Assembly (NCBI GenBank): GCA_965215515.1
Contig: OZ244057.1
Location: 1,760,001-1,824,000, forward strand
DNA length: 64,000 bases
Source of the DNA: Oligoflexales bacterium
GTDB taxonomy: Bacteria > Bdellovibrionota_B > Oligoflexia > Oligoflexales > JAPPIL01
Reading direction: 5' to 3'
A program made the position numbers and the translations under genes. A model generated the notes under the pieces. The model was not told the origin of the DNA and made no database searches. It was given only the letters and a program-made list of their open reading frames with translations. Positions 6,964 through 22,223 of this stretch are shown here, piece after piece. The stretch's first letter is position 1. Every line of letters starts with the position of its first letter.

Positions 6964-9210
6964 TTAACGTGCAGGCCATGCTTGGCGGTAAAAGCGATCG
7001 ATATCTATAAGGAGATGAGTTTTTTCGTTCTCGTGTTCATAAAGGCGTAGCAGTGCCGCCAGTGATTCTACTGCTGCGAGCGAAGGAATTTTTATTTCCT
7101 TATCACTTGCTGCTCCTAGCTTCAACGGTTCGCGATACTCATCGAGATTGAGTTCGGCAAACGCTTCAAAAAAACTTTTATCCTCTTTAAGGTAAGCCAG
7201 CTTGGAGTTAGCATACCACACTTTTTTCTGCCAGCCATCGAGAACACGAGCAACACTCATCAAGCTCCCGATCGCCACCGCGGTAGGCACAGTGCTGTGA
7301 TTTACTTTACCACGCAAGTAGTGCCATAACGTCCAGTCGACAACGTTACGCGGCCCAGAATGAAACACACCCCACATGTTGTTGAACTTGTGATTTTCGA
7401 TGGTGATGTCATCGCGCCACAAGAGAAAATAAATATTTTGTACGTAGATATTGAGTAGAGCATAAGTTAACGACAACGCCGCAGTGTTTTTGAAACGTCC
7501 CTGAATGCCTCCATCCGCACTGCCGATAGCCATGGTGCGCAGATATGCACCTAGTAAGTTATCGACAGAATTGAGCATAAAGTTCTTGCTAGTGATAGGG
7601 TTGATTCCACGATCGAGATGTGACTTGATGTCGGTATAACGAGCAACACTGAAATGGTTGATTAAATCAAGACTTAACAGTAAATCACCGCGGCTTTTCA
7701 TGTTGTAAAAAGGAATAAACTTGTTCCAACTGCTGGTGATAGCACGTGCGGCAGCACCAATTCCCCAAAAGCTGATCGGTATTGCCACAATATTAAACGT
7801 GTTATTGTAAATGCGGCTGTTCTCTTCCCGCTCGTCCAATAACAACAGGGAACGCTCCGCCTGCAAACTTTTTATTCCCCGTACACTACGCATCAGAAAG
7901 GAGAACGCGGCGGTTACAGAGGCGAGCGGCATCACCTGCGGGCGAATTTTTTTGATCAGGAAACCAGCGGCGAACATCGTCCCGTAAGCAGCTTGCGACC
8001 AGGCTTCCGTCATTCTGACGGAGGTGCGCCCCCAGCTGGGGTGACAGAAAGCTGCCAGAAGATCGAGACTGTCTTCCTTCGTGTAGCTGTTGAGCAGCGA
8101 CCACAACACCAAACGATACTCCTCGATCTCAAAATCTTGACCGTGACAGGCATTATCGCGCACGTCCTGCTGTGTCGCCACCCAGTCGATGTAAGTGCGA
8201 TCGACTAGACGGGCAACCTGGTAGAGAGTATCATCGCTGAGGTTATCGATATATTTTTCTACGTCACTATCGAGTGCAAACATGAAATAAAATTGTAATG
8301 CACGTAGATTAGTAATTTGTCCTTTATTGAGCACGATCTCTTTGTTTTTGATGGTTTTTATTTTAATTGCATCGATGTTGTTGCTGAATTCATCCACCTT
8401 CGCCATCAAAGGGCGCAACTTACGTGCAAAATCAAACTCCAGCCGTTGCATCACACCTTCATGATGGCCATTGACGAAGGCGAGCACGAAAAGCTCGTGG
8501 GCAAGCGTTCGCCCGCGCACATCGAAGTGCCGCAAGCTCCGCCAACGCAGCAGCGGAAATTTTTCATAGAGAAGCTCCAAGCGTTGCTGCGGATAGCCAA
8601 ACTGCATCTTCTCCAGCGCGATGGGGTAAATAGGGGGAAAAGCCAACTGCTCGATGCGTCCCACATCTCGTGACCAAAAGGGCGGGTGCTGCCAGTTGCG
8701 GCTGCGCAGTCTGTGCCAATTGCCCCGCCGCAGGATATGCTTGATGAACATCAACTCGTAAGAAACACGCAACAACACCCGCATGTTGCTCGCCCGCCGC
8801 AGGGTAACACTACGACGCAGGTGCGTCTCTGTCTCTCGCATCGTCCGTTGCTGAGCCGCTATCTCCTCCCACGCCGTGCGGTTGAGCCGCGGGCAATGAG
8901 AGGGAAAGTGCACCTGTGGAAAAGTTTGGTGGGCGTAGAAATAAGCCATCTTTTTCTCCAAAGCGAGCGATCGCGCCAGCATGTGGGCACGCATTTCATG
9001 GCGTAATTTGCTGCGTATCGCCTGCACCCCCCCCGCAGCGTGTGCGTAACGCTGGGCGAGGTCTTCCTTCAGCCCCTGCTGCTGGCACACTTTGTTGAGG
9101 GTGCGCAACGAGAAGGTGGGTGGTAACTGCTGCAACTCCAAACTATCCTGTGCTCGTAGCGGCAGAGCATACGCACCGAGAATATAGAGATATGCACACA
9201 GTCTTTTCAT
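6964..9210 (-). CDS. Large hypothetical protein with signal peptide and C-terminal hydrophobic segments
   Basis: Long ORF; MKRLCAYLYILGAYALPLRA signal; no recognised family. Confidence 0.7.
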   Translation of the reverse strand: MKRLCAYLYILGAYALPLRAQDSLELQQLPPTFSLRTLNKVCQQQGLKEDLAQRYAHAAGGVQAIRSKLRHEMRAHMLARSLALEKKMAYFYAHQTFPQVHFPSHCPRLNRTAWEEIAAQQRTMRETETHLRRSVTLRRASNMRVLLRVSYELMFIKHILRRGNWHRLRSRNWQHPPFWSRDVGRIEQLAFPPIYPIALEKMQFGYPQQRLELLYEKFPLLRWRSLRHFDVRGRTLAHELFVLAFVNGHHEGVMQRLEFDFARKLRPLMAKVDEFSNNIDAIKIKTIKNKEIVLNKGQITNLRALQFYFMFALDSDVEKYIDNLSDDTLYQVARLVDRTYIDWVATQQDVRDNACHGQDFEIEEYRLVLWSLLNSYTKEDSLDLLAAFCHPSWGRTSVRMTEAWSQAAYGTMFAAGFLIKKIRPQVMPLASVTAAFSFLMRSVRGIKSLQAERSLLLLDEREENSRIYNNTFNIVAIPISFWGIGAAARAITSSWNKFIPFYNMKSRGDLLLSLDLINHFSVARYTDIKSHLDRGINPITSKNFMLNSVDNLLGAYLRTMAIGSADGGIQGRFKNTAALSLTYALLNIYVQNIYFLLWRDDITIENHKFNNMWGVFHSGPRNVVDWTLWHYLRGKVNHSTVPTAVAIGSLMSVARVLDGWQKKVWYANSKLAYLKEDKSFFEAFAELNLDEYREPLKLGAASDKEIKIPSLAAVESLAALLRLYEHENEKTHLLIDIDRFYRQAWPAR

Positions 9211-9250
9211 TTTATGATTAAGGCCATCTTTCAAAGAGTTATTTACAGTT

Positions 9251-9532
9251 TTACTGAAATTTCCTTAAAGTTTCAAAGGAATAGATTCCCGTACGGTGTC
9301 CGTCGGAAAACGCAATCAACAGCGCATACCGCCCCACCGATTTTATTTCGGTAGGGCGAACATGATCGTCCGTTGCAATTTTGTCGGTCGCGGCGGATTT
9401 CTGCTCCGCACACGCGGCGCAGGGACAACCACGCCGCAGCGCGACGACATCGTACAGTCGCTCCATGCCGTCGTCCCACACGATTTTCAGGGTGCGTTCG
9501 TCGTGCTGGCTAATTTGCTGGGGGAAACTCAC
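9251..9532 (-). CDS. DUF971 (GBBH-like N-terminal) protein
   Basis: LRRGCPCAAC and VGRYALLIAFSDGHRTGIYSF. Confidence 0.9.
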   Translation of the reverse strand: MSFPQQISQHDERTLKIVWDDGMERLYDVVALRRGCPCAACAEQKSAATDKIATDDHVRPTEIKSVGRYALLIAFSDGHRTGIYSFETLRKFQ

Positions 9533-10452
9533 TGCTGCTTCTCCTTCGCCTGCCAGACGAGATGGAAACTGTGCATCTTGTCATCAGCGGCGACCGCGGC
9601 TGCGAGTTGGGCTTCGATCTGCTCGACAGCTTTACGATACGCAATGGCACTAGTGGCATTGGGGTACTGGAGTACTATGGGAATACCCCGATCGGATGTC
9701 AAGGCAACGTTTGTCGCGAGCGGGATTTTCCCCAGCAAGGGCACATTTGCCTTGCGTGCCAGCTTCTCTCCTCCCGCACTCAGGAACACATGGTGTTCTT
9801 TCTGGCAACCATCACAGACAAAACTACTCATCGTCTCGATGATCCCCAGCACGGGCACGTTAGTGGTGGCAAACAAGCCCAGTGCCTTCTCGACATCCCG
9901 CAATGCCACGTCTTGCGGGGTAGTTATCAGCACCGCCCCGCTGAATGCTACCGCTTGAGAGAGAGTTAGTTGAATATCGGAAGTGCCAGGCGGATAATCG
10001 ACGATCAGGTAATCGAGTCTACCCCACGCGACCTGTTCCAGAAACTGCTTGATCACCGCGGCAGCCATCGGCCCCCGCAGGATGTTGGCCTTCTGCCGTG
10101 TCTGGAACATCGCGACGGAGATGACCTTGACTCCGCCCAACTCAGGCGGTCGCACGGGGTGGCTGTTGTCTCGGGGATAGACGACGGGCTCGACCCGCGC
10201 GGTCAGCAGCGGAATCGAAGGGCCGAAGATGTCGGCATCGAGCAAACCCACCGCTAGACCTTTGTCGGCGAGCGCATAGGCGATGTTGACGGCGGTGGTC
10301 GATTTCCCCACCCCGCCCTTGCCGCTGGCGATGGCGATGACACGATCGACCGCCGCGAGAGTAGACCGCTCGCGCCCAGCAGTGACACGGCGGGCAGCAG
10401 CACCTCCGAAGGGCTTACCTGCTGTTCTGGCGGTTGTTCCAGCGGGGATCAT
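9529..10452 (-). CDS. mrp: Mrp/NBP35 (ApbC) Fe-S cluster carrier ATPase
   Basis: ASGKGGVGKST, LDADIFGPS, LRGPM, DYLIVDYPPGT, TTPQ, CDGC. Confidence 0.93.
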   Translation of the reverse strand: MIPAGTTARTAGKPFGGAAARRVTAGRERSTLAAVDRVIAIASGKGGVGKSTTAVNIAYALADKGLAVGLLDADIFGPSIPLLTARVEPVVYPRDNSHPVRPPELGGVKVISVAMFQTRQKANILRGPMAAAVIKQFLEQVAWGRLDYLIVDYPPGTSDIQLTLSQAVAFSGAVLITTPQDVALRDVEKALGLFATTNVPVLGIIETMSSFVCDGCQKEHHVFLSAGGEKLARKANVPLLGKIPLATNVALTSDRGIPIVLQYPNATSAIAYRKAVEQIEAQLAAAVAADDKMHSFHLVWQAKEKQQ

Positions 10453-10519
10453 AGGCCATCCAACCAACTCAAACGAGTTGCTAGCAGAGACAACACAAAA
10501 ATAAAAGCCTTAAAAATTT

Positions 10520-11449
10520 TTACCACATCCGAGGAGGCCCCGTCGTCATCTCCTCCTGCGGGGGAGGAAATTCACGCAAGTAGTCGGCACTGAAAATAAG
10601 TTGGAAATACTCCCGCAGGGTGACCAGCAACTGCTCGATGCTGGTGACACGGTAAGGCTCGCTTGCGTCGCTGGTCACGATAAAAGGATACGCGCTAGCA
10701 AGGTCGAGCTCCGCCTGCCCCCAATTCCATTTCGCCAGCTGTGCGTTGCTGTTTCGCCAAAAACCGTAAGACCCCCTCCATGCCTCGACAGTACCCCCGA
10801 CGATGAAGAGACTGGTGAAAAATAACGCAGGCCTGCTTCTGAAGAGCCTAAGACCATTTTCCATCTTCGCGAGACCCTCCCTGTGAGACTTGAGATGATC
10901 TTCCCAGCGCAAGTCTGGATTCTTTGTGCTGGCCTTTCTCCAAGTTCTCTCGGCGTTAGATTTAGATAAGTCATCGAGATATCTAGCGATGTCGGCATCG
11001 CCCATCTTGTGCAATGTCCACAGCTTGGTGAAGGCAAGGCGTGCTGCCTTCGGGGTGAGCACGCAGGCCAGGGCAACAAAGCCCAGTAGCGCAGCTGTCC
11101 CTGTCACGTAGCGTAACGCTTTACCCCCCACCCCTCGGATACGTAACCCCCCCGTCGCGGGGACAGCGGTGAAGACGACAGGGCTGCCGTCCCTCTCCTC
11201 AAAGGGGTTGAAACAACGCACCTGCAAGGCGGTCGCCGCACCCTCGCTAGCATCCACTGCCCGCAGAGGACAGAGCTGAAAATGATAGGGAGCTTCTCGC
11301 TCGACAAGATTTACCCGCGTCAAACTAAGCACATAACCCTCGTCGGCCACCGCCTGTGGCCGTGCCGCGGGCACAGGGCCACCACAGCTGGCAACAAACA
11401 ACACGAGAACCAGGCAGATACAACGAAAGCATGTAGTGCGTAATCTCAA
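10520..11449 (-). CDS. Hypothetical lipoprotein with two internal hydrophobic segments
   Basis: LFVASC lipobox; GGAGG upstream of TTG. Confidence 0.65.
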   Translation of the reverse strand: MRLRTTCFRCICLVLVLFVASCGGPVPAARPQAVADEGYVLSLTRVNLVEREAPYHFQLCPLRAVDASEGAATALQVRCFNPFEERDGSPVVFTAVPATGGLRIRGVGGKALRYVTGTAALLGFVALACVLTPKAARLAFTKLWTLHKMGDADIARYLDDLSKSNAERTWRKASTKNPDLRWEDHLKSHREGLAKMENGLRLFRSRPALFFTSLFIVGGTVEAWRGSYGFWRNSNAQLAKWNWGQAELDLASAYPFIVTSDASEPYRVTSIEQLLVTLREYFQLIFSADYLREFPPPQEEMTTGPPRMW

Positions 11450-11684
11450 AGAAGCCTCCGTTAGGAGGCAATACTATACCAAAGATTAAATAATACTACA
11501 ACAATTAAATTTATATTACAGCGGAGATGATATGCCTATTATGCCAAAATAACCTCTCTCTGAGAGAAGGTATGCAATATCTGTGTGTTGTATAAATAAA
11601 TTGCACTATAAATTACAGTTTTAAAAAAAATTGTCGTTGACAAGAACGTTGCTGTGGAGTTTTGAAAAAAGTTGGATCACAAGC

Positions 11685-12746
11685 TCAATCGCTCAGCCAA
11701 TCGAGCATCGCTTCCTTGACCGCATTATCCATCTGCGTCGCATGCGTTGTAGGTGGCATAACCCTGCCGACACCGTTGATCCTGTCGATCATGACATCCT
11801 TGCTTCGCCAGGCTAAACTGACGCTCCTCGCATAATCTGGATGACATGAGCAATATCGGCGGAAATGCTCCCCCATAGATTGCTTATAGATGTCTTGCTT
11901 CGCCGCCGTGATGCTAGCATCGACACTCAGCGACTGTGCATCACAACCCGTATCGGCAGCCGTCGCGGCACGCACCGTAGCAAAAGAAAACGATAGCGTA
12001 TGCTCAACCTCCATGTCCGCGACGAGAACAGTCGTATTCTCAAAGCCCACCAAATTGCTGAAGGGCGGACGAGCAGCACAAGCAACTCTCGTTAGACTGG
12101 CATTAAGCGAATTCCAAGCCCCATTGACCAGCGGCTTGATACCCTCCAAATACACCGCGTGCTGCGTGCTGAGCTGTAAGTTCCTAAGCTCGTAGCCACC
12201 TCCATCGCTGAGTGGCTCGATGTCCATCTGGAGCGAAATGCTCTCTTTGCCGTAATTGCTATCGACAAGATCGCCAATGTCGTAATGCAGCCTATTTCTG
12301 CCCGCTGGATCGAGAAGCGCCGTGCTCAGCACACTCGCCGCACTGCTTTGCCTCGCCTCTTTCCACGCGCCGATCGCCGCGATCAATGCGTCCCCCTCCG
12401 CCTGACAGTCGCGCGCACAGTTATGATGATCGTCTTTCAGACGACGCACAAGCCGCGAATTAGGAATGTTCTGAAAATCAACCTTGTTTCCCTCCATGAG
12501 GACACGCTGCGCGGCAGCCGCATCTCTGACAGCAAACAGCGGAGCTTGCTGCTGCCCATGACAAGACGCACAATGCTGCAACGCAGGCAACAAATGCTGC
12601 TCAAACGCCGCCACAGAATCAGCTGCCACACCGCCGCCCCCACCAGTCGTCTTGCCAGCTCTTGACACAACGTTGATACTGTCGGAACAAGCATATAGCA
12701 GAACCACCAACAACAAGACTTTCTTGTCATCGCCACACATCACCAT
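11685..12746 (-). CDS. Putative c-type cytochrome lipoprotein
   Basis: LLYAC lipobox; CASCH heme motif; HHNCARDC; C-terminal CSCH...MPP. Confidence 0.7.
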   Translation of the reverse strand: MVMCGDDKKVLLLVVLLYACSDSINVVSRAGKTTGGGGGVAADSVAAFEQHLLPALQHCASCHGQQQAPLFAVRDAAAAQRVLMEGNKVDFQNIPNSRLVRRLKDDHHNCARDCQAEGDALIAAIGAWKEARQSSAASVLSTALLDPAGRNRLHYDIGDLVDSNYGKESISLQMDIEPLSDGGGYELRNLQLSTQHAVYLEGIKPLVNGAWNSLNASLTRVACAARPPFSNLVGFENTTVLVADMEVEHTLSFSFATVRAATAADTGCDAQSLSVDASITAAKQDIYKQSMGEHFRRYCSCHPDYARSVSLAWRSKDVMIDRINGVGRVMPPTTHATQMDNAVKEAMLDWLSD

Positions 12747-12756
12747 TGCCCTGGCA

Positions 12757-14205
12757 TCACGCTTTCCTGATGAACAGGTAGTCGTCGAGTTCCTCAGCCC
12801 GAATCGGACTGCCCTGCACAATTTTCTGTAGCTCGCCTTCCCGTCCCTGCCAGGCTAACCAGTTTGCGAGCACCGCAGTCGCATGTGCCCCAGGATTCTC
12901 GCTGATTTTGCCATGTCGTTCAGGATTGAGATCGACCGTGCCACCGTCAGCCGCACGATAAGCACCCATCTGCTTGAAAACCAGATCAGGCCTCCCACTA
13001 GGGTCATAGAGGAGCACAAAAGCCGCCGCACGAGTCTCGCTATCACCCCGCCAGACATATTTTTCCACCCCATCGCCCACATCCTCCGCAGCCGCATTAA
13101 CGTTGGCATCAACACCCCCGTCGGTATAAACATGCAGCATCAACTTGCGTTCCAGGGCCGCGGCCATCGCTAACACTGTGCCGATCACCTCACCGGCCCG
13201 CTCGTCCCGCTCTTCCCCTGTCGTCGCTGTGCCATCGTGGTAATCATAGCCACCCATGGCAATCGTCCCCGCTCCCGCATAGCCCATCAGCGACAAGTAG
13301 GCGACTTCGACCGCCGCCTCAGACACACCTCTCAGCACCCCTGCACGGTTGAGCGCCGCCAACTTGGGATGGCGACGAGGATCGAGATCACTGGCCGTCA
13401 CCGCACTGCTCTCACCATCGTTCGCAGTCAGCAAGTCTTTAGCATCGAGGTAACCACACTTGATCATCTCCCGTGCCTGCTCAGGCAAACTCAAACGAGA
13501 GAACTGCTGCAACTGTGTCTCGCTCAGGTCCTCCAACAACGCCAAAACCCCCGCCATCTTCCGCGGGGAACGTTTCCAGAAATCGCCAGGCGAAATCAAC
13601 TGCGTCGCACTCGCAATATCCCTGATGAAAGCAGGAGTGACCCCGCTGGGGAACGGCGTGGCGGAATTACCCCCCGAACCACCTGGAAAAGAGGGGCGCG
13701 TGCCGACGAGAGGAGTGACCAGACCACCCCCGCCCGCCACGAAAATGCCAGGAGCAGAAGCCAGACGATTGCTGGCAGTATCATCGGCAGATTGCGTGCA
13801 GATGACACAACCGCTTACCTTCGCCAGAGCATCCGCCGCCACCGCACGTATCCCTCGCAACATCGGACTTGCCGCGTGCATCGCCAATCCCGCCTCGTGA
13901 TTGATCATTCCGTCCAAATGCGGAGCGAGTGCCGTCGGCAAACCTAAACCACGATAATCGCTGAGCAAATCGCCCCCGCGGTCGTAAACCATGATATTGT
14001 TACCCGCGATGCTCGCACCGCCTTGTAGGTCAATCCCGATGAAGGCGGGCGCATCACTGGCCACCTCCGCTTTCTCACATCCAGCCGCCGCCAACGCCCT
14101 GCCGTCGAGAAGCAACGTCGTCAAGCTCGGCAGACATACCGAAGCGGAAATCGGCACCGCCCCCGCGGCACTGAGAAAATCACGGCGCGACAGGTGTTTT
14201 TTCAT
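12757..14205 (-). CDS. Tat-exported DUF1501-like protein
   Basis: SRRDFL twin-arginine signal; DLQGGASIAG; GGYDYHDG; YTDGG. Confidence 0.75.
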   Translation of the reverse strand: MKKHLSRRDFLSAAGAVPISASVCLPSLTTLLLDGRALAAAGCEKAEVASDAPAFIGIDLQGGASIAGNNIMVYDRGGDLLSDYRGLGLPTALAPHLDGMINHEAGLAMHAASPMLRGIRAVAADALAKVSGCVICTQSADDTASNRLASAPGIFVAGGGGLVTPLVGTRPSFPGGSGGNSATPFPSGVTPAFIRDIASATQLISPGDFWKRSPRKMAGVLALLEDLSETQLQQFSRLSLPEQAREMIKCGYLDAKDLLTANDGESSAVTASDLDPRRHPKLAALNRAGVLRGVSEAAVEVAYLSLMGYAGAGTIAMGGYDYHDGTATTGEERDERAGEVIGTVLAMAAALERKLMLHVYTDGGVDANVNAAAEDVGDGVEKYVWRGDSETRAAAFVLLYDPSGRPDLVFKQMGAYRAADGGTVDLNPERHGKISENPGAHATAVLANWLAWQGREGELQKIVQGSPIRAEELDDYLFIRKA

Positions 14206-14225
14206 CCTCTATCCCTCCATCGTTA

Positions 14226-14873
14226 CTAGTGAAAAACCACCGCGGCACTGGCCAGCATGGCGTTACAGACCCCGAACAATACCTCGCCCGTGCTTCCCAT
14301 CCTCGTGTTTCCGCCGCGCAGGTAGCGTGCTTCGCCCGCCCCTTCGCCCAACGCTTCGGCGATGAACGTGCTGATGTCAGTAACCGCCTGCTGACGGTCT
14401 ATCTCGACCGACGCAGCTCTGCGCCAAAAAGCATCGCTAAGAGTATCTACAATCTCGGCACGGCGGGCAGGGGCGAGCGCCTCCGCGGGCGCAGCTGCGA
14501 AATCGATGCTCGGCAAGATTGTCGCACGCACATCGGTATTCTTGTTGATCAGCTGATTGCAATAAGCACCTGCGAGACGAAAGACACCCACCTGCATTTG
14601 ACCGTTAAAACCGCTGAGCGAGTTGTCGAGTGGCAACATACTGCTAACAATCTGATAATCGCCACGCACCGCCTTGCTATCGATGCCCGTCAGCTGACTC
14701 AGCGTGATGTTGATCTCGCGAAAGTCACGCACCGCAGCTGACATGCTCCCCTTACCCGCTGCCGCAAGAACATCTGAATAGGCATCATCTTCGCCTGTCG
14801 TGTTGCGGAGAAGCCCCTCCCTCTCGCTACAGGCGACCGACACGAGCAAAAAAACAATCAGCAATGCGTGCAT
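14226..14873 (-). CDS. Hypothetical lipoprotein of the four-gene cluster
   Basis: LVSVAC lipobox; ATG overlaps upstream stop (TGATG); RDFREINITLSQLTG...LAGAYCNQL. Confidence 0.7.
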   Translation of the reverse strand: MHALLIVFLLVSVACSEREGLLRNTTGEDDAYSDVLAAAGKGSMSAAVRDFREINITLSQLTGIDSKAVRGDYQIVSSMLPLDNSLSGFNGQMQVGVFRLAGAYCNQLINKNTDVRATILPSIDFAAAPAEALAPARRAEIVDTLSDAFWRRAASVEIDRQQAVTDISTFIAEALGEGAGEARYLRGGNTRMGSTGEVLFGVCNAMLASAAVVFH

Positions 14874-16240
14874 CACCCGCCCCCTTTCCCCGCCAAGCAA
14901 GTCACCGCAGTGGCGGCGAACAGCTTGCGCATGTTGTATTGCCCCTGCTCGAAATAATTAGCCAGGGTACTGGTAAGTGCAGCATCTTCCTCGCCTGCTG
15001 CGGTGGAACAGACTTGGCGTTGCGCGTGTGTCGCCATGCACGTTGCGAAGGCTTGGCTGGAGGCAATCATGATACCCCACTCGCGTGCGCCGTTGCCGCT
15101 GGTTTTGCCGCGCCAACCGAGAGCATCGTTCTGCCCTGTCGTCCACAGATTTCTGAAGGAATCGGTGGCGTTTTCCTCCTTGCGATAGTCATAACCGCCT
15201 GCATAGACAATATTTCTAGTGATCTTTTTGCGCACCAACCCGCTGCGGTAGATGAGTTGCTCGCCGAGATAGCGTCCGCGATCGGTGAACTTGACCTGAT
15301 CTTCCTCAAAATCATAAAAGACATTCCAGCCGCTGAGAGCATCCAACCCCGCGTGGCAACCGATACAACGTCGTTTGAACAGTTGGTGGTCACCGCCTGG
15401 CTCACGATGCACGTCGGGACGGATGAAACCATCCTGCACCGTGATGTCGTGCAACTGCTCCATGTCGTGACAGAGAAAATACTTCAGCACAAACGCCGTC
15501 GCTCGCCTGTTCGTGCCTGCCGAATAGTAGGCACTGGCAAACCCACGGGTAGAGAGAACGCCTGCGATTGCTGCCGTCGGCATCGCACCCTCCGCGACGA
15601 TCGACCAGCGTACCCGTCCTCCCGTCGCACGATCGTCCCCTTCGATACGAAACCACTGCCCCCGTGGGGTTTCTGACTGTCGCCGTCGCTGCAATGCTGC
15701 CTGCAAATCATGACCATCTAGACAGTGGTAGTGTTCGTTGGAATCACCTCGATAGGAGGGAAACACCCCGTCCTTGCACCACCCGTATTGTGCGTTGCGG
15801 GAAATCGGTTGCCCTTCCTCGTCGAAGTAGCTCTTCGGCTCGACGATCAGGCCGTCATTAGCGGTGTAGAGGTGATCACCATACAGTGCCTCCCTGAACG
15901 GAATGTCGTCCCTGACAATGCCGATCAAGGTCGCGATCATATCGTTAAGCACGACGTTGGGGTTGCCCGCAACGTTCGACCAAGAACTGAACAGACTGCG
16001 CAATTTGAGGTTGTAGAACGCGGGGTTCTGTGTCGCCAACAGTGCCGCTTGCTGTGGTTTGTCCTTGGCCAGTAACTCGACCATCTCGGTCAGCGTCCCC
16101 GCCGACGGCGGTACGCCAGCAATGCGGTTGTGCATCAACACCGCGGTCGCGGTCATCTCGTCTCTGCTCGCGGCAGATTGCAACACGCCCGCGAGCAAGA
16201 TGCACGCACACAGAGCGACCCCTTTGCATAGCCTATCCAC
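14873..16240 (-). CDS. Secreted CxxCH protein with DUF1585-like C-terminus
   Basis: Signal peptide; CIGCHAGLD; C-terminal GAREWGIMIASSQAFATC...YNMRKLFA. Confidence 0.7.
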   Translation of the reverse strand: MDRLCKGVALCACILLAGVLQSAASRDEMTATAVLMHNRIAGVPPSAGTLTEMVELLAKDKPQQAALLATQNPAFYNLKLRSLFSSWSNVAGNPNVVLNDMIATLIGIVRDDIPFREALYGDHLYTANDGLIVEPKSYFDEEGQPISRNAQYGWCKDGVFPSYRGDSNEHYHCLDGHDLQAALQRRRQSETPRGQWFRIEGDDRATGGRVRWSIVAEGAMPTAAIAGVLSTRGFASAYYSAGTNRRATAFVLKYFLCHDMEQLHDITVQDGFIRPDVHREPGGDHQLFKRRCIGCHAGLDALSGWNVFYDFEEDQVKFTDRGRYLGEQLIYRSGLVRKKITRNIVYAGGYDYRKEENATDSFRNLWTTGQNDALGWRGKTSGNGAREWGIMIASSQAFATCMATHAQRQVCSTAAGEEDAALTSTLANYFEQGQYNMRKLFAATAVTCLAGKGGG

Positions 16241-16339
16241 TGCCGTTCTCCCCTCTAGATGCCCCCATCTCCACTGTCTTATCGGCAACATACTGTCCTA
16301 CCTTAGAAACATCCCTATTTTTTGCTAACAATAAAAATT

Positions 16340-17731
16340 TCAGGAAGTTAGCTTGCGGAGGTGCGCGATCACGATACCTGTGGCACTGATGGTGATCCCG
16401 ACGTACAGCGCATCGAGCCATGCGTTGTTGGGGTAGAATTTCCAAGCCGTTACTCCTGCCGCGGAGGCCAGGCAGATGCTAACGAATTGCCTGTCCTGCA
16501 GTTTGTGACGCGCACAGAAGTATCCGTGGAGCACGGGTAGTAGCAGGCAGGCGGCGGAGTATGTGCCTAATGTTTTCCATACTTGGGGAATATTGTTCTG
16601 GAATAGCTGCACCAGTGCCAGCGTCAGCAGTCCTGAAAGAGTAAGGGCAAGGATATGCGGCCATTTCGACGTGTTCTGCTTGTAGCCCAGCAGGTCGAAC
16701 GACACCGATGTCGAGGCGATGAAGAGGTAGGAATCCATCGTCGAGAGGATGGTGGCACAGATGCCTGCCAGCAGCAGACCTTTCACCCCCGCGGGCAGGA
16801 TGGACAAGCCGTAGGTGAGGTAGGCGTGTGCGGCATCGAGCTCTGGGTACACGGCACGGGCGTACATTGCGCCGAGCACGGTGCAGAGGTCGAAGGTTAC
16901 CCAAATGCAGGTGCTGAGCACGATACCCTTGCGCGCGACGGTAAGCGAGCGGGCGGCGAACACGCGCTGGTAGAAATTGGGATCGACCAGTGTTGACAAG
17001 GCGATAAACCCCCATACTAGGGTGGGCAGGAGTAGGTCGCTGCTAAACGGTGTGAGGTGAGTAGGGGGGAGGTGTTGCCGCAAGAAATCGTAACCGCCGT
17101 AGGTCAGGTAAGAAAACAGCAGCACGATCGCTACTGCCGTGTACATAGCGATGAACTGCGCGATATCCGAATAGACGATGGCACGAAACCCGCTCACCGC
17201 CGAGTAGCAGACGATGGCCAGCAAGCCCACTGCGGTGCAGACAAAAAAATCACCGCCGCTGAGTATCTGCAAAAAAATTCCCAGGCTGATAGCATAGGCG
17301 AGGGGCAGGACGTTACAGAAATTAAATATGCTGCTCAGTCGTCCCGACCACGGCCCGAACATCTGCGTCACTAGTTCTGGCAAGGTCATGGCATCGAACT
17401 TGCGCACTGCGGGGGCGATCAAAAATGCAAACAGCAGATAGGTAACGTACCAGAAAACACCTTGCACCAGGAAGGCGTACACACCCTTCTCAAAGGCAAA
17501 TTGTGTCACTCCGAAGATACCGCCGTACCAGGTGGCGGCGAGTGTCGCGACGAACAGCGGCAGCGTCAACTGCCGCCCCATCAGCATGTAATCGAGCACG
17601 CCAGCTTGTGTCGAGGAGAGCTTGCCTTTGCGCTGCGTTCCGTGAACGACCAGCAAGAGTGTCGCGGTCAGCACCGCTGCAAACACTAGCCAATCGTAAA
17701 CGGTGACAGCCGCGACTACCTCTGCGGTCAT
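16340..17731 (-). CDS. Sodium:solute symporter (SSS) family transporter
   Basis: Multi-TM; ATWYGG, TLPELV, YSAVSGFRAIVYSDIAQ, FYQRVFAARS, ILSTMDS. Confidence 0.9.
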   Translation of the reverse strand: MTAEVVAAVTVYDWLVFAAVLTATLLLVVHGTQRKGKLSSTQAGVLDYMLMGRQLTLPLFVATLAATWYGGIFGVTQFAFEKGVYAFLVQGVFWYVTYLLFAFLIAPAVRKFDAMTLPELVTQMFGPWSGRLSSIFNFCNVLPLAYAISLGIFLQILSGGDFFVCTAVGLLAIVCYSAVSGFRAIVYSDIAQFIAMYTAVAIVLLFSYLTYGGYDFLRQHLPPTHLTPFSSDLLLPTLVWGFIALSTLVDPNFYQRVFAARSLTVARKGIVLSTCIWVTFDLCTVLGAMYARAVYPELDAAHAYLTYGLSILPAGVKGLLLAGICATILSTMDSYLFIASTSVSFDLLGYKQNTSKWPHILALTLSGLLTLALVQLFQNNIPQVWKTLGTYSAACLLLPVLHGYFCARHKLQDRQFVSICLASAAGVTAWKFYPNNAWLDALYVGITISATGIVIAHLRKLTS

Positions 17732-19473: not shown

Positions 19474-20466
19474 TCAAGCTTCCTCCGCACAAGCACGCAA
19501 GTAGTTACGCACCTCCAGCTGCAAACGTGCCGAGAGATGAAGGTTGGCACTGCGCTGCTCCCTGTCGGATGTGAGTTGCCGTAACTCCTCCCGCACGCCG
19601 AGACGGGTGACCTCTGGTAAAGCATTGAGCACCGTGTCGCAAGTTAGAGTGTCGGTGTTGAAGAGAATGTAAGCAATGTCACGCTCGGCACGCTCGGCAA
19701 AAACCGCGGCCACCTCTGGAGGCGTTAGAGTCGCGATGCTCTCGAAAGGCAAGAAATGACGACGCAACTCCTGCAGCAGTTGAGGTCTGTGCTGCAACGA
19801 AGCTAGCATCTGGTAGGAGTCGTCTTTGCTGAGGTTGCTGATTACCGCACCGAGATAACGAGCGGTGTGCGGCTCGTCCAGGCAACGCTGGGTGAGTTTC
19901 TTGCCTTTGCGGGCAAGAAAGTGCAGCAAGCTGTCGAGGTCATCTTCGCTGACCAAGTTGATGGTTTGCAAAGCTGTCATCAGCTTTTGTTTTTCTGACT
20001 CGGATGTGCTCAGCAACACGGCTTTGCTAACCCGCAGGGGCGACAGACAAGAGAGGAGAGCAGCACGTAGCTCGTCGGGAACATTTAACATCAGGTGCAG
20101 CAGTTGTGCACTAGACAGTTCCGCCAGCCAACCTGGACTTTCGAGACGTAACCCCAGGGGACTGCGAGCAAACTCAGCCGCGGCGATGTCGCGATGGAAA
20201 AGATGCAACGCCCGTCTACGCAAACCACGCAATCTTGCCAATAGGTTCGCTTGCAACGAGAGGACAGTCAGCTGCTTGAAATGCGCGACCGTAAGCTCGA
20301 CAATCAGCAACTGCACGATCTCACGCTCAAAACAGAGTAGCAGCGCTAGCACTAGCTCCCGCCGCGGCTGCTCCTCCATCCATTCCGCCAGCACCTGCGC
20401 GGGCACATCACTACGCTGGCTATGCAGAATTTCGATCTTCGTGCGACAATCACTGAGTATCCTCAC
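19474..20466 (-). CDS. Orphan protein with FliG middle/C-terminal-like domain
   Basis: LRRHFLPFESIATLT...DIAYIL...VLNALPEVTRLGVREEL resembles FliG_C. Confidence 0.55.
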   Translation of the reverse strand: MRILSDCRTKIEILHSQRSDVPAQVLAEWMEEQPRRELVLALLLCFEREIVQLLIVELTVAHFKQLTVLSLQANLLARLRGLRRRALHLFHRDIAAAEFARSPLGLRLESPGWLAELSSAQLLHLMLNVPDELRAALLSCLSPLRVSKAVLLSTSESEKQKLMTALQTINLVSEDDLDSLLHFLARKGKKLTQRCLDEPHTARYLGAVISNLSKDDSYQMLASLQHRPQLLQELRRHFLPFESIATLTPPEVAAVFAERAERDIAYILFNTDTLTCDTVLNALPEVTRLGVREELRQLTSDREQRSANLHLSARLQLEVRNYLRACAEEA

Positions 20467-20534: not shown

Positions 20535-22223
20535 TTAGAGGTCGCTGGAAGGGTCTTGGGTATCTACAGCATCACCTTGAAATTTTCCATACACCGACAC
20601 TCGCGGGTCTCCTTGATCCATCTTGCTTCTGCATGCAGAGATGCCTTTTTTAACTTTTTCTTCGAAATCAGGAAGATAATTGTAGCAGTCTTTCTCATAA
20701 TCCATACGACAATAGTAGACAGTGAAGCCCTTCAGATCTAAACTATCCCACGTATCAGCTCTAATTTGGTTAATATAGGTGTATGGAATCTTATCGAGAT
20801 TGTCCCAAAAGCTCCACTGGCCCACTAAACCGTGCTTTCGCTCCGATTTAAAAGTCAGATAAGTGTCTTTTTCCTCGAAGGTAAGGTTCGTGGCATAAAC
20901 GGCAGGGCAGTGATGTTCTCCTGGCATCAGTTCTACGTGAACACGTTTGTGGGATACGTGCTTCTTCAACCACTTGTAAAGGTCACTAGCAGCCGACCCT
21001 CCTACGATAGTAGCTCCTCCAACCATAACCAAACCCACACCCACACCACCAGTACTAGCCGCGACAAGTGATGCAGCAACACCTCCTATTGCTACTACTC
21101 CTAGCTTAATGAAGCCAGCCCAACGTCCCGCACTGGGTTTTTTCGCAGAGGTTTCGAGGGTCAATTTCAACTCTCTATTTTTTTTGCCGTCTGGATCTCT
21201 CGACGGACGTGGTGCGATAACAGCCAGCTTGCTCCGCTCAAGTTTCTCCCCACGATCGTGGTCGTGATCATGCACCGTGGGGTCAACTGGAGGAATATGA
21301 TGACCGCCGCCGCCACCTCGCATGTAGTTGATTAGCTCGGCGTTGAAGTTGGGAACATTCACCGCGAGCTGGAAACCGTTTTGTTGCCATGGCAAGATAA
21401 TGTGCATGTCTATGCGTCCGCCGCGCGGCATGAAAGGCTGGCCACCCTTACCGTAATCAACCTGCCCGACACCTTGGACAGGATCACCTTCACCGTAACC
21501 GATCTGCTCGACACCCTGGACGGGGCCTTTCTCCACGGGCATGGCGACCTTGCCCGCTTGCTGCTGTTCCACGACAGCAACTACTGCGCCCTTGCCACCA
21601 CCCTTGTCAGCACCATGCGGCACAAAAGAGCCTGTCGGCGGTGCGATGAGCGCCACCCAAATAACCTTGCCATCTACATGGTCGGTGGTTTGGCAGAACT
21701 GAACACCATTCGCCACCGCAAACCTATGGCATCGACCAATAAACAGGCTGGCAAAGCGTTCTGGGGTCAAGCGCACCTCACCGCCGCTGTTAAAACGTAT
21801 TGTCGGTGGCGGGTAGTTCTCATAGCCTGGGAGGTACTTGACCTTGATGGCCAGAGCTTTGTTCGCAAAGAGATTGCTTATAGCGGCTGTGTCCGCTGAC
21901 TGATGGCGGCAAAGAGAACTGTCGCCCCTGTTGATCGCTCCTGTTTGCTGCCGTGAGGATTCAGGGATCAACTCGTAGACAAGGTCGTCAAGACGGCTGG
22001 GCACGGGACGGGGAACATCGCCACAATTGAGACGCGCGTTTCTTTCCCACGCAGGTATCTGCTGGTCGCGAAACGACAGGGTTGTGACCGCAGCGTGGGC
22101 CAATAAATTGCCCGCGGTATCCACCACCCTCGTTTTGGTACGGCTGGACTCGAACCCCAGCTTGCAACCGACGAAGAACACGAGAGCAGCCAGCAAGGCA
22201 AGCCTAACTCTACTACGAACCAC
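20535..22223 (-). CDS. Modular hypothetical lipoprotein
   Basis: FFVGC lipobox; internal 14-aa repeat; Gly-rich hydrophobic hairpin; GAGGAGG RBS. Confidence 0.7.
   Translation of the reverse strand: MVRSRVRLALLAALVFFVGCKLGFESSRTKTRVVDTAGNLLAHAAVTTLSFRDQQIPAWERNARLNCGDVPRPVPSRLDDLVYELIPESSRQQTGAINRGDSSLCRHQSADTAAISNLFANKALAIKVKYLPGYENYPPPTIRFNSGGEVRLTPERFASLFIGRCHRFAVANGVQFCQTTDHVDGKVIWVALIAPPTGSFVPHGADKGGGKGAVVAVVEQQQAGKVAMPVEKGPVQGVEQIGYGEGDPVQGVGQVDYGKGGQPFMPRGGRIDMHIILPWQQNGFQLAVNVPNFNAELINYMRGGGGGHHIPPVDPTVHDHDHDRGEKLERSKLAVIAPRPSRDPDGKKNRELKLTLETSAKKPSAGRWAGFIKLGVVAIGGVAASLVAASTGGVGVGLVMVGGATIVGGSAASDLYKWLKKHVSHKRVHVELMPGEHHCPAVYATNLTFEEKDTYLTFKSERKHGLVGQWSFWDNLDKIPYTYINQIRADTWDSLDLKGFTVYYCRMDYEKDCYNYLPDFEEKVKKGISACRSKMDQGDPRVSVYGKFQGDAVDTQDPSSDL
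21443..21524. repeat. Imperfect 42-bp in-frame tandem duplication
   Basis: Encodes PVQGVEQIGYGEGD / PVQGVGQVDYGKGG. Confidence 0.75.

Follow-up and report, generated by a model that had tools for sequence, protein, structure and literature searches.

A conserved four-gene operon joining heme-motif proteins to a twin-arginine-signal protein of predicted alkaline-phosphatase fold in an Oligoflexales genome

Results

We analyzed a 64,000-nucleotide stretch of DNA (hereafter, the window) from an Oligoflexales bacterium (contig OZ244057.1, positions 1,760,001 to 1,824,000), in which four adjacent minus-strand open reading frames (ORFs), here designated A, B, C, and D, encode proteins with export signals (Table 1). 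A preliminary description of this DNA had pointed out their coordinates and co-orientation, the TGATG overlap at the A/B junction, and two short gaps; all of this can be read directly from the window letters (20 nt between B and C, 10 nt between C and D), as can every motif that it listed (CIGCH, SRRDFL, GGYDYHD, CASCH, HHNCARDC, CSCH, and MPP). An alternative in-frame ATG for A is possible at 16291, yet the 89%-identical homolog P0124 also has 455 amino acids (aa). Among the 999 six-frame ORFs of at least 300 aa in the window genome (2.18 Mb, one contig), CxxCH was present in 16 and [ST]RRxF[LI] in 1 (first 40 residues scanned), and, given this rarity, the motif set of A-D is beyond chance expectation. 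The genome contains a single copy of each gene, as searched by tblastn. Contigs assembled from three public runs, all belonging to one study that may be where this DNA came from, span positions 11000-17000 unbroken with zero mismatches or indels; an assembly slip behind the unusual CSCH motif of D is therefore unlikely. No Pfam or NCBIfam cut-off was reached by any of the four proteins. Promoter scanning gave 6 sites versus 2.6 expected and terminator scanning 4 versus 5.0 expected, the two terminator-like sites downstream of D being not above chance. An RNA search listed no holder. No functional study of the A-B-C-D family was found in the papers searched, among which coverage of subscription journals was limited.

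Table 1. Positions in the window of the four genes, their motifs, and nearby features
Feature	Position	Strand	Remark
Gene A	16240-14873	-	GTG start, 455 aa
Gene B	14873-14226	-	215 aa, predicted lipoprotein (Cys15)
Gene C	14205-12757	-	Tat substrate, 482 aa; fold predicted to be of the alkaline-phosphatase superfamily
Gene D	12746-11685	-	353 aa, predicted lipoprotein (Cys20)
A/B junction	14875-14871		TGATG overlap
CIGCH heme-attachment motif of A	15353..15367	-	C, C, and H each 201/201
Twin-arginine motif SRRDFL of C	14173..14190	-	RR in 347/350
D321-Y-H323 of C (GGYDYH)	13237..13245	-	predicted metal-site motif; D and H each 350/350
CASCH heme motif of D	12558..12572	-	C59, C62, and H63 invariant, 34 rows
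Contracted CSCH motif (C299-H302), D C-terminal domain	11841..11852	-	common to 7 homologs
M330-P-P of D	11751..11759	-	in all 8 CSCH proteins
Terminator-like site	11553-11569		downstream of D
Terminator-like site	11454-11469		downstream of D
Flanking ORF	10520-11449	-	309 aa, lipoprotein-like
ParA/NUBPL-type ATPase	9529-10467		flanking
SSS transporter	16340-17731		flanking
FliG_C-domain protein	19474-20466	+	away from obvious flagellar cluster
ORF	6964-9234	-	756 aa
ORF	20535-22223	-	562 aa

A profile of C had matches in 42 of 131 genomes of the same phylum, the window genome included. From 73 listed match places, 40 loci in 27 genomes were selected with long flanks favored, and profiles of B and D were derived from them after all-against-all clustering. 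The order A-B-C-D on one strand is found in 36 of the 40 loci; within these 36, a stop codon interrupts C in L033 and D is frameshifted in L061. The remaining loci are truncated by contig ends (L066 and L067), lack D (L056), or contain C alone (L050). Close relatives hold two to four operon copies (three in G001, four in G002, and two in G003), and all nine copies have the four genes. L033 (G002:C1:2323063-2324592) is one of the four paralogous operons of G002, and the TAA stop within its C may reflect a decaying copy or an error.

More distant loci, taken as the best 80 of at least 593 GTDB relatives found with a narrower C alignment, belong mostly to Gammaproteobacteria, with some from Myxococcota, Deltaproteobacteria, and Spirochaetales. 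In 70 of these 80, a single chain combines D and B, with B as its C-terminal domain, and the order A-(D+B)-C recurs over several phyla. Named Alteromonas strains (L125 and L126) hold the fused form. The other ten comprise four frameshifted D+B fusions, five contig-end cuts, and one A-B-C-D locus (L129). A was found in 66 of the 80, and in the other 14 the sequence starts no more than 1.7 kb from C. All seven D+B fusions that were scanned contain LamG, and Ig/cadherin stalks are present as well in two of the seven. Two fusions of 1,700-1,800 aa (L124:3534-8984 and L128:3765-8948) place six to seven Ig/cadherin repeats between the N-terminal CxxCH and the core, which suggests a stalk raising the module off the membrane. 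This synteny survey, proposed in the preliminary description, agrees with its view of one module: A-B-C-D is a conserved operon. Because the genes are linked and D and B are fused at distant loci, the four proteins likely form one complex. Complex prediction for A and C scored 0.00 in two runs that had no folded controls, and was used neither for nor against binding.

C is predicted to have the core fold of alkaline phosphatases, NPPs, and sulfatases. Its model (pLDDT 86) matched Xac NPP best in VIA (Z 12.0, rmsd 3.7 over 215 residues), and all 50 VIA rows listed are of AP/NPP/sulfatase/iPGM/EptA type, i.e., from the alkaline-phosphatase (AP) superfamily. Foldseek, a check recommended in the preliminary description, also returned members of this superfamily, with TAB5 alkaline phosphatase as the best match (E 2.8e-4) and three rows at E ≤ 0.001. 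Single-sequence and profile searches of C against the PDB gave nothing at this threshold. Across 350 homologs, D321, H323, D362, G363, and D388 are invariant, while D59 (as Asp or Glu, 344), D142 (348), T143 (as Thr or Ser, 336), N146 (343), and H110 (308) are kept in most; the six presumed active-site residues occur together in 331. The two-metal site of SPAP comprises Asp49, Thr89, Asp300/His304, Asp345/His346, and His491, according to passages of PMC3145672. In C, D59 closes strand 1 and T143 precedes a helix (151-156), followed by D321/H323, D362, and D388. The conserved residues appear to match the SPAP order, as judged from motif order and secondary structure, and T143, standing before a helix, would be the equivalent of the nucleophile. 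We consider C a likely metalloenzyme.

Pfam TAT_signal scored 15.3 bits on C, below the cut-off of 22.7, and the twin-arginine pair is conserved among the homologs (Table 1). The preliminary description had taken C for the catalytic subunit of a redox/metalloenzyme complex, with a twin-arginine translocation (Tat) signal and a motif that resembles GGWDTH of DUF1501. The signal stands and a metalloenzyme is likely, but C is no DUF1501 member by Pfam: PF07394 was matched neither by C nor by any of 75 C-family rows, nor was it found in the window genome. Against 31 DUF1501-type proteins, hhalign aligned only residues 301-366 of C (49% probability, E 1.8e-4); a smaller set of 8 rows gave 33%, and the control comparison of A with DUF1501 gave 0.2%. 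Likewise, C has no HxxSHH, and DUF1552 (PF07586) was matched in none of the 75 rows and had no match in the window genome; comparison of C with 30 DUF1552 proteins gave alignment in the signal region only (probability 2-18%, the 18% from 13 rows).

The C family is represented by 1,375 sequences at 50% identity (E ≤ 0.001). The three nearest Atlas clusters of C (0.97) bear the automatic name 'general secretion pathway protein GspF family'; T2SSF was matched in 0 of the 75 rows and the model of C is of soluble AP type, and the label is likely a propagated misannotation. Atlas also placed C at 0.94 to a cluster that is 45% DUF1501, with a query recognition value under the tool's mark; the cluster assignments of C are therefore weak. 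Lipidation of C at C43, as in a Tat lipoprotein, was considered less likely than a C43-C250 disulfide behind an ALA cleavage site; of the 343 rows without a gap there, 315 have Cys at both positions.

A has a Sec-type signal, a single CxxCH (C292-H296), and PSD2/DUF1585-like C-terminal helices. Its CxxCH is retained throughout 201 rows and that of the N-terminal domain of D throughout 34, so that these two heme motifs of the preliminary description are indeed conserved. T243-N244-R245, D276, and D300 are also invariant in A, and K339 is kept in 189 of the 201 rows. Among these rows, no invariant His or Met was found as distal ligand; H170 is kept in 144/201 and M299 in 136/201, the latter being Leu in the window copy. 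Four further Cys, kept in 194/201, likely form the disulfides C257-C401 and C411-C448. The first pairing is proposed because both Cys are lost together in 2 of the 201 rows (weak evidence), and for this reason C257 was rejected as a SoxA-type heme ligand.

The whole-chain model of A (pLDDT 91) gave no Foldseek match at E ≤ 0.001 and a best VIA Z of 5.3 over 48 residues, which does not imply a novel fold; sequence and profile searches against the PDB gave nothing at E ≤ 0.001. The DUF1585-like tail ascribed to A in the preliminary description was recovered in relatives but not in A itself: Pfam PSD2 and PSCyt3 did not match the window's A, whereas among 84 rows of relatives, matches at E ≤ 0.1 were to PSD2 (25), PSCyt3 (15), and PSCyt2 (11). 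PSD3, PSD4, and PSD5 were absent from the 23 Pfam families listed for these rows. When the A profile was compared with 202 ORFs, the CxxCH partner was recovered at 14 of 15 loci with DUF1552 (E 1e-6 to 0.045) and at 4 of 5 loci of DUF1501 type (E 1e-9 to 6e-8). By these profile matches, A is a remote homolog of the PSCyt3/PSD2 partners, and, being an exported protein with conserved CxxCH in a genome that has CcmF, it is a putative c-type cytochrome.

Both B and D were described as lipoproteins, and both are predicted lipoproteins here: their lipoboxes are atypical, but the Cys behind a hydrophobic stretch is conserved (34 of 35 rows for B, 34 of 34 for D). In B, two Cys, likely joined as a C105-C203 disulfide, are both present in 95 of 97 rows. 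It matched no Pfam family, PSD1 is not among the 25 families shown for the 97 rows, and PSD1 occurs in 1 of 131 genomes of the phylum, below cut-off. Atlas cluster scores of B for PSD2 (0.83), DUF1800 (0.78), and PSD1 (0.77) serve as leads only.

D consists of an N-terminal cytochrome c domain (CASCH and H108-N-C110...C114), a middle domain, and a lineage-restricted C-terminal cytochrome-like domain. The N-terminal domain, exported and with its CxxCH in all 34 rows, is a putative c-type cytochrome in this CcmF-containing genome, with H108 (kept in at least 90% of the rows) as the likely distal ligand. In other families of the phylum, D has an insert with mostly weak matches to carbohydrate-binding modules (CBMs) and similar domains (GH115_C 7, CBM_35 3, and CBM_6 2 of 34 rows); the family of the window's D lacks this insert and has the C-terminal domain in addition.

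The C-terminal domain resembles D's own N-terminal heme domain (76%, 22 columns) and departs from the canonical CxxCH spacing, having CSCH; M330 is its likely distal Met. Of 18 D-type proteins compared, CSCH and MPP are present in 8 (the window, P0388, P0390-P0393, L031, and L038), and the other 10 have CX2CH (2, in L039 and L068, canonical CxxCH at the place of CSCH), CX3CH (2), CX4CH (3), or no motif (3: L037, and P0389 and P0394, which both end early). In addition, three small stand-alone exported proteins encoded outside the window in the same genome (G000:C1:310435-310893, 310929-311315, and 1099925-1100449) are similar to the heme domains of D, two with CX4CH (CGNGGCH and CAQSSCH) and one with CxxCH. 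It seems from these sequences that this lineage often uses non-standard heme-motif spacing.

Among the nearest known systems are the PSCyt/PSD modules. Those pairing PSCyt3/PSD proteins (DUF1587/1595/1592/1588/1585) with DUF1552 (HXXSHH, PF07586) likewise contain an exported single-CxxCH protein with a PSD2-like tail, adjoining a Tat protein. In contrast, A is shorter and has no PSD3/4/5 match, and the module in the window has two extra lipoproteins, B and D. DUF1501 modules share a Tat protein with GGxDxH (GGYDYH in C, GGFDTH in the DUF1501 set) and a following strand motif (TDG versus SDFG). The DUF1501 set has TTSH where C has DDTxN, and GRDH where C has G-D without His; C also has an Asp on strand 1. 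PSCyt1/PSCyt2/PSD1 modules are echoed by weak matches to PSCyt2 in A relatives (11/84) and to PSCyt1 in D relatives (2/34), while the cytochrome partner that accompanies DUF1501 there is split here into three genes.

Passages of PMC3542564 and PMC5615132 call the PSCyt/PSD modules with DUF1501 or DUF1552 conserved and functionally unknown, mention CBM and LamG domains, and suggest that they serve to transfer electrons or to use carbohydrates. LamG, here in the D+B fusions, sometimes occurs in DUF1501 + PSCyt1/PSCyt2/PSD1 modules of the PVC group according to portions of PMC3542564; Verrucomicrobia PSCyt genes carry CBMs and neighbor sulfatases in the account excerpted from PMC5615132, and excerpts of PMC2754498 count PSD1 and PSCyt2 alone 41 times each in R. 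baltica. The kinship to uncharacterized planctomycete and myxobacterial layouts named in the preliminary description is upheld. Very probably, the module represents a true variant of the design seen in PSCyt/PSD + DUF1501/DUF1552 modules, namely a split, compact, four-piece form of modules that are themselves known but uncharacterized. With regard to D, a contracted CKCH heme motif is reported to be functional in a Kuenenia tetraheme cytochrome (cited in a passage of PMC7096707); like CSCH, it has one residue between the Cys, followed by His, whereas CSCH lies in a predicted monoheme His/Met lipoprotein domain whose paralogs vary in spacing from 1 to 4.

A second module type is found at four loci of the same phylum (L240, L241, L242, and L244), where a two-CxxCH A-like protein precedes a DUF1501-type gene; L240 and L244 also have a weakly B-like gene upstream (E 0.0016 and 0.012). 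Moreover, the close relatives G001, G002, and G003 have one to three additional genes (L211-L217; 520-610 aa) with a weak likeness to DUF1501, which were not found in the window genome.

The window genome has genes for CcmF-type, TatC, and Lgt proteins, in line with the export signals reported for the module. The genes flanking the operon (Table 1) have no homologs in the 40 related loci and were not counted as module parts. One of them, a 309-aa ORF behind an AT-rich gap after D, matched nothing in Pfam or NCBIfam and contains two hydrophobic stretches in its interior. Farther away, the window encodes a FliG_C-domain protein and two long ORFs with no family above cut-off.

At the 80 distant loci, neighbors include a thioredoxin-like cluster (46) and ApbE (10), and TPR, MotA/ExbB, ExbD, and barrel genes adjoin 20-34 of them; ApbE/thioredoxin clusters are described in part of PMC8238504. 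ApbE and barrel neighbors were absent from all 41 stretches of the window's phylum, window included, and none of the thioredoxin-like, barrel, TPR, MotA/ExbD, ApbE, or methyltransferase neighbors stands beside the window's operon. A carnosine-N-methyltransferase-like gene (PF07942, with a Trm112-like or PqqD-like extra domain) accompanies the operon in two distant groups: it directly follows C in 26 of the 80 distant loci (L071-L150) and is present at six of the 40 loci of the phylum (L042, L047, and L058-L061). It was not found in the window genome. One possibility is that its product modifies C while C is still in the cytoplasm, ahead of Tat export.

Discussion

We tentatively favor, with somewhat less than even confidence, a reading in which C acts on a phospho- or sulfo-ester group, by cleavage or transfer, within a lipoprotein-tethered periplasmic complex, and A and D carry electrons. 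C would fold and load its metal in the cytoplasm before export by Tat, A, B, and D would be exported by Sec, and heme would be attached by system I (CcmF). Lipidated B and D would anchor the complex, with B perhaps bridging D to A or C. C would act on the ester through a two-metal site with Thr143 as nucleophile, and the heme-motif proteins A and D would handle electrons for a coupled oxidation of its substrate. The exchangeable middle part of D, with a CBM-like insert in relatives and LamG in Gammaproteobacteria, may select a glycan-like substrate, and the extra CSCH/MPP domain may add a third heme as electron exit.

This reading draws on the likeness of C to the AP superfamily (NPP, PhoK/SPAP, sulfatases, iPGM, and EptA) in predicted core fold and in the order Asp, Thr, Asp/His, Asp. 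Several points weigh against it. C differs from these enzymes in its Tat export and fixed heme partners, and its identity to the solved AP-family proteins among the VIA matches is just 6-14%. The assignment of its residues to the metal sites follows from motif order and secondary structure only, and a profile comparison of C with six NPP-family proteins gave nothing (probability 0.2%); the ligand map of C is therefore still provisional. G363 and D388 appear to stand where the AP site has His. With two His ligands apparently replaced, a Zn2 hydrolase site would not be intact. The CBM-like insert is absent from the window's D, which has the added C-terminal domain instead, and across the 40 loci of its phylum the operon has no conserved neighbor specific to a substrate. 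Nor is any AP-superfamily hydrolase known to need cytochromes.

The apparently altered site gives some weight to an alternative that we regard as unlikely and that comes closest to the model of the preliminary description. Here C would be a redox metalloenzyme on an AP scaffold, performing oxidative chemistry at a carboxylate-rich Fe/Mn site (D59, D142, D321, H323, D362, and D388), with the hemes of D and A wiring it to the respiratory chain. The apparent change of two His positions to Gly and Asp leaves five acids and one invariant His, heme partners nearly always adjoin C, and distant loci often have a thioredoxin-like cluster or ApbE. On the other hand, Thr or Ser is retained at the presumed nucleophile place, the structural matches listed are hydrolases, mutases, and transferases, and the ApbE and barrel neighbors are missing from the window's own phylum. 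Since hydrolases and transferases make up the superfamily to which the fold of C is predicted to belong, the redox catalytic subunit first proposed for C is only one option. In its fullest form, the idea is that an AP fold has turned into a heme-wired redox enzyme whose carboxylate-rich metal site is supplied by way of A, a cytochrome of new fold, and the lipoprotein D, with its last heme on the contracted CxCH; we consider this rather unlikely.

The lack of an invariant distal His or Met in A could also mean an open distal site, and A might then be the catalytic heme enzyme, peroxidase- or MauG-like, receiving electrons from D and modifying C or the product of C, for example by maturing an active-site residue of C. 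The invariant polar residues T243, R245, D276, and D300, the largely kept K339, and the apparent pairing of the remaining Cys would suit such a site. We nevertheless judge this role of A improbable: no peroxidase or MauG-like protein is among its listed structural matches, and K339 or a partner could supply the distal ligand. About equally doubtful is that the module works without catalysis, as a sensor or scaffold of the envelope, in which C would bind a metal or anion but not turn over, and the hemes would report redox or ligand state. The incomplete AP ligand set of C, the Ig/cadherin stalks on two D+B fusions, and the TPR, MotA/ExbB, ExbD, and barrel genes beside distant loci are compatible with it; against it, the presumed active-site residues of C are kept together in nearly all homologs, and the operons of the phylum have neither a signal-transduction gene nor a transmembrane output conserved beside them. 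That the genes are mere neighbors without common function, as the solitary C of L050 and the missing D of L056 might hint, is hardly credible and largely refuted by synteny, given the 36 full operons, duplication of the unit, and the A-(D+B)-C arrangement over several phyla.

The C family is large, and its GspF label is misleading; A, although modeled with confidence, has no solved structural match. In the CSCH domain of D, motif spacing varies naturally from 1 to 4 residues, a series with which to probe the tolerance of the Ccm system. If the AP fold has indeed become a heme-wired redox enzyme, this operon of four pieces would represent in minimal form the chemistry of the many PSCyt/DUF1501/DUF1552 copies of planctomycetes and myxobacteria. 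The A-B-C-D family is a small, often single-copy form of the PSCyt/PSD modules with separable subunits, and, with the fused form available in Alteromonas, knock-outs and reconstitution are therefore feasible.

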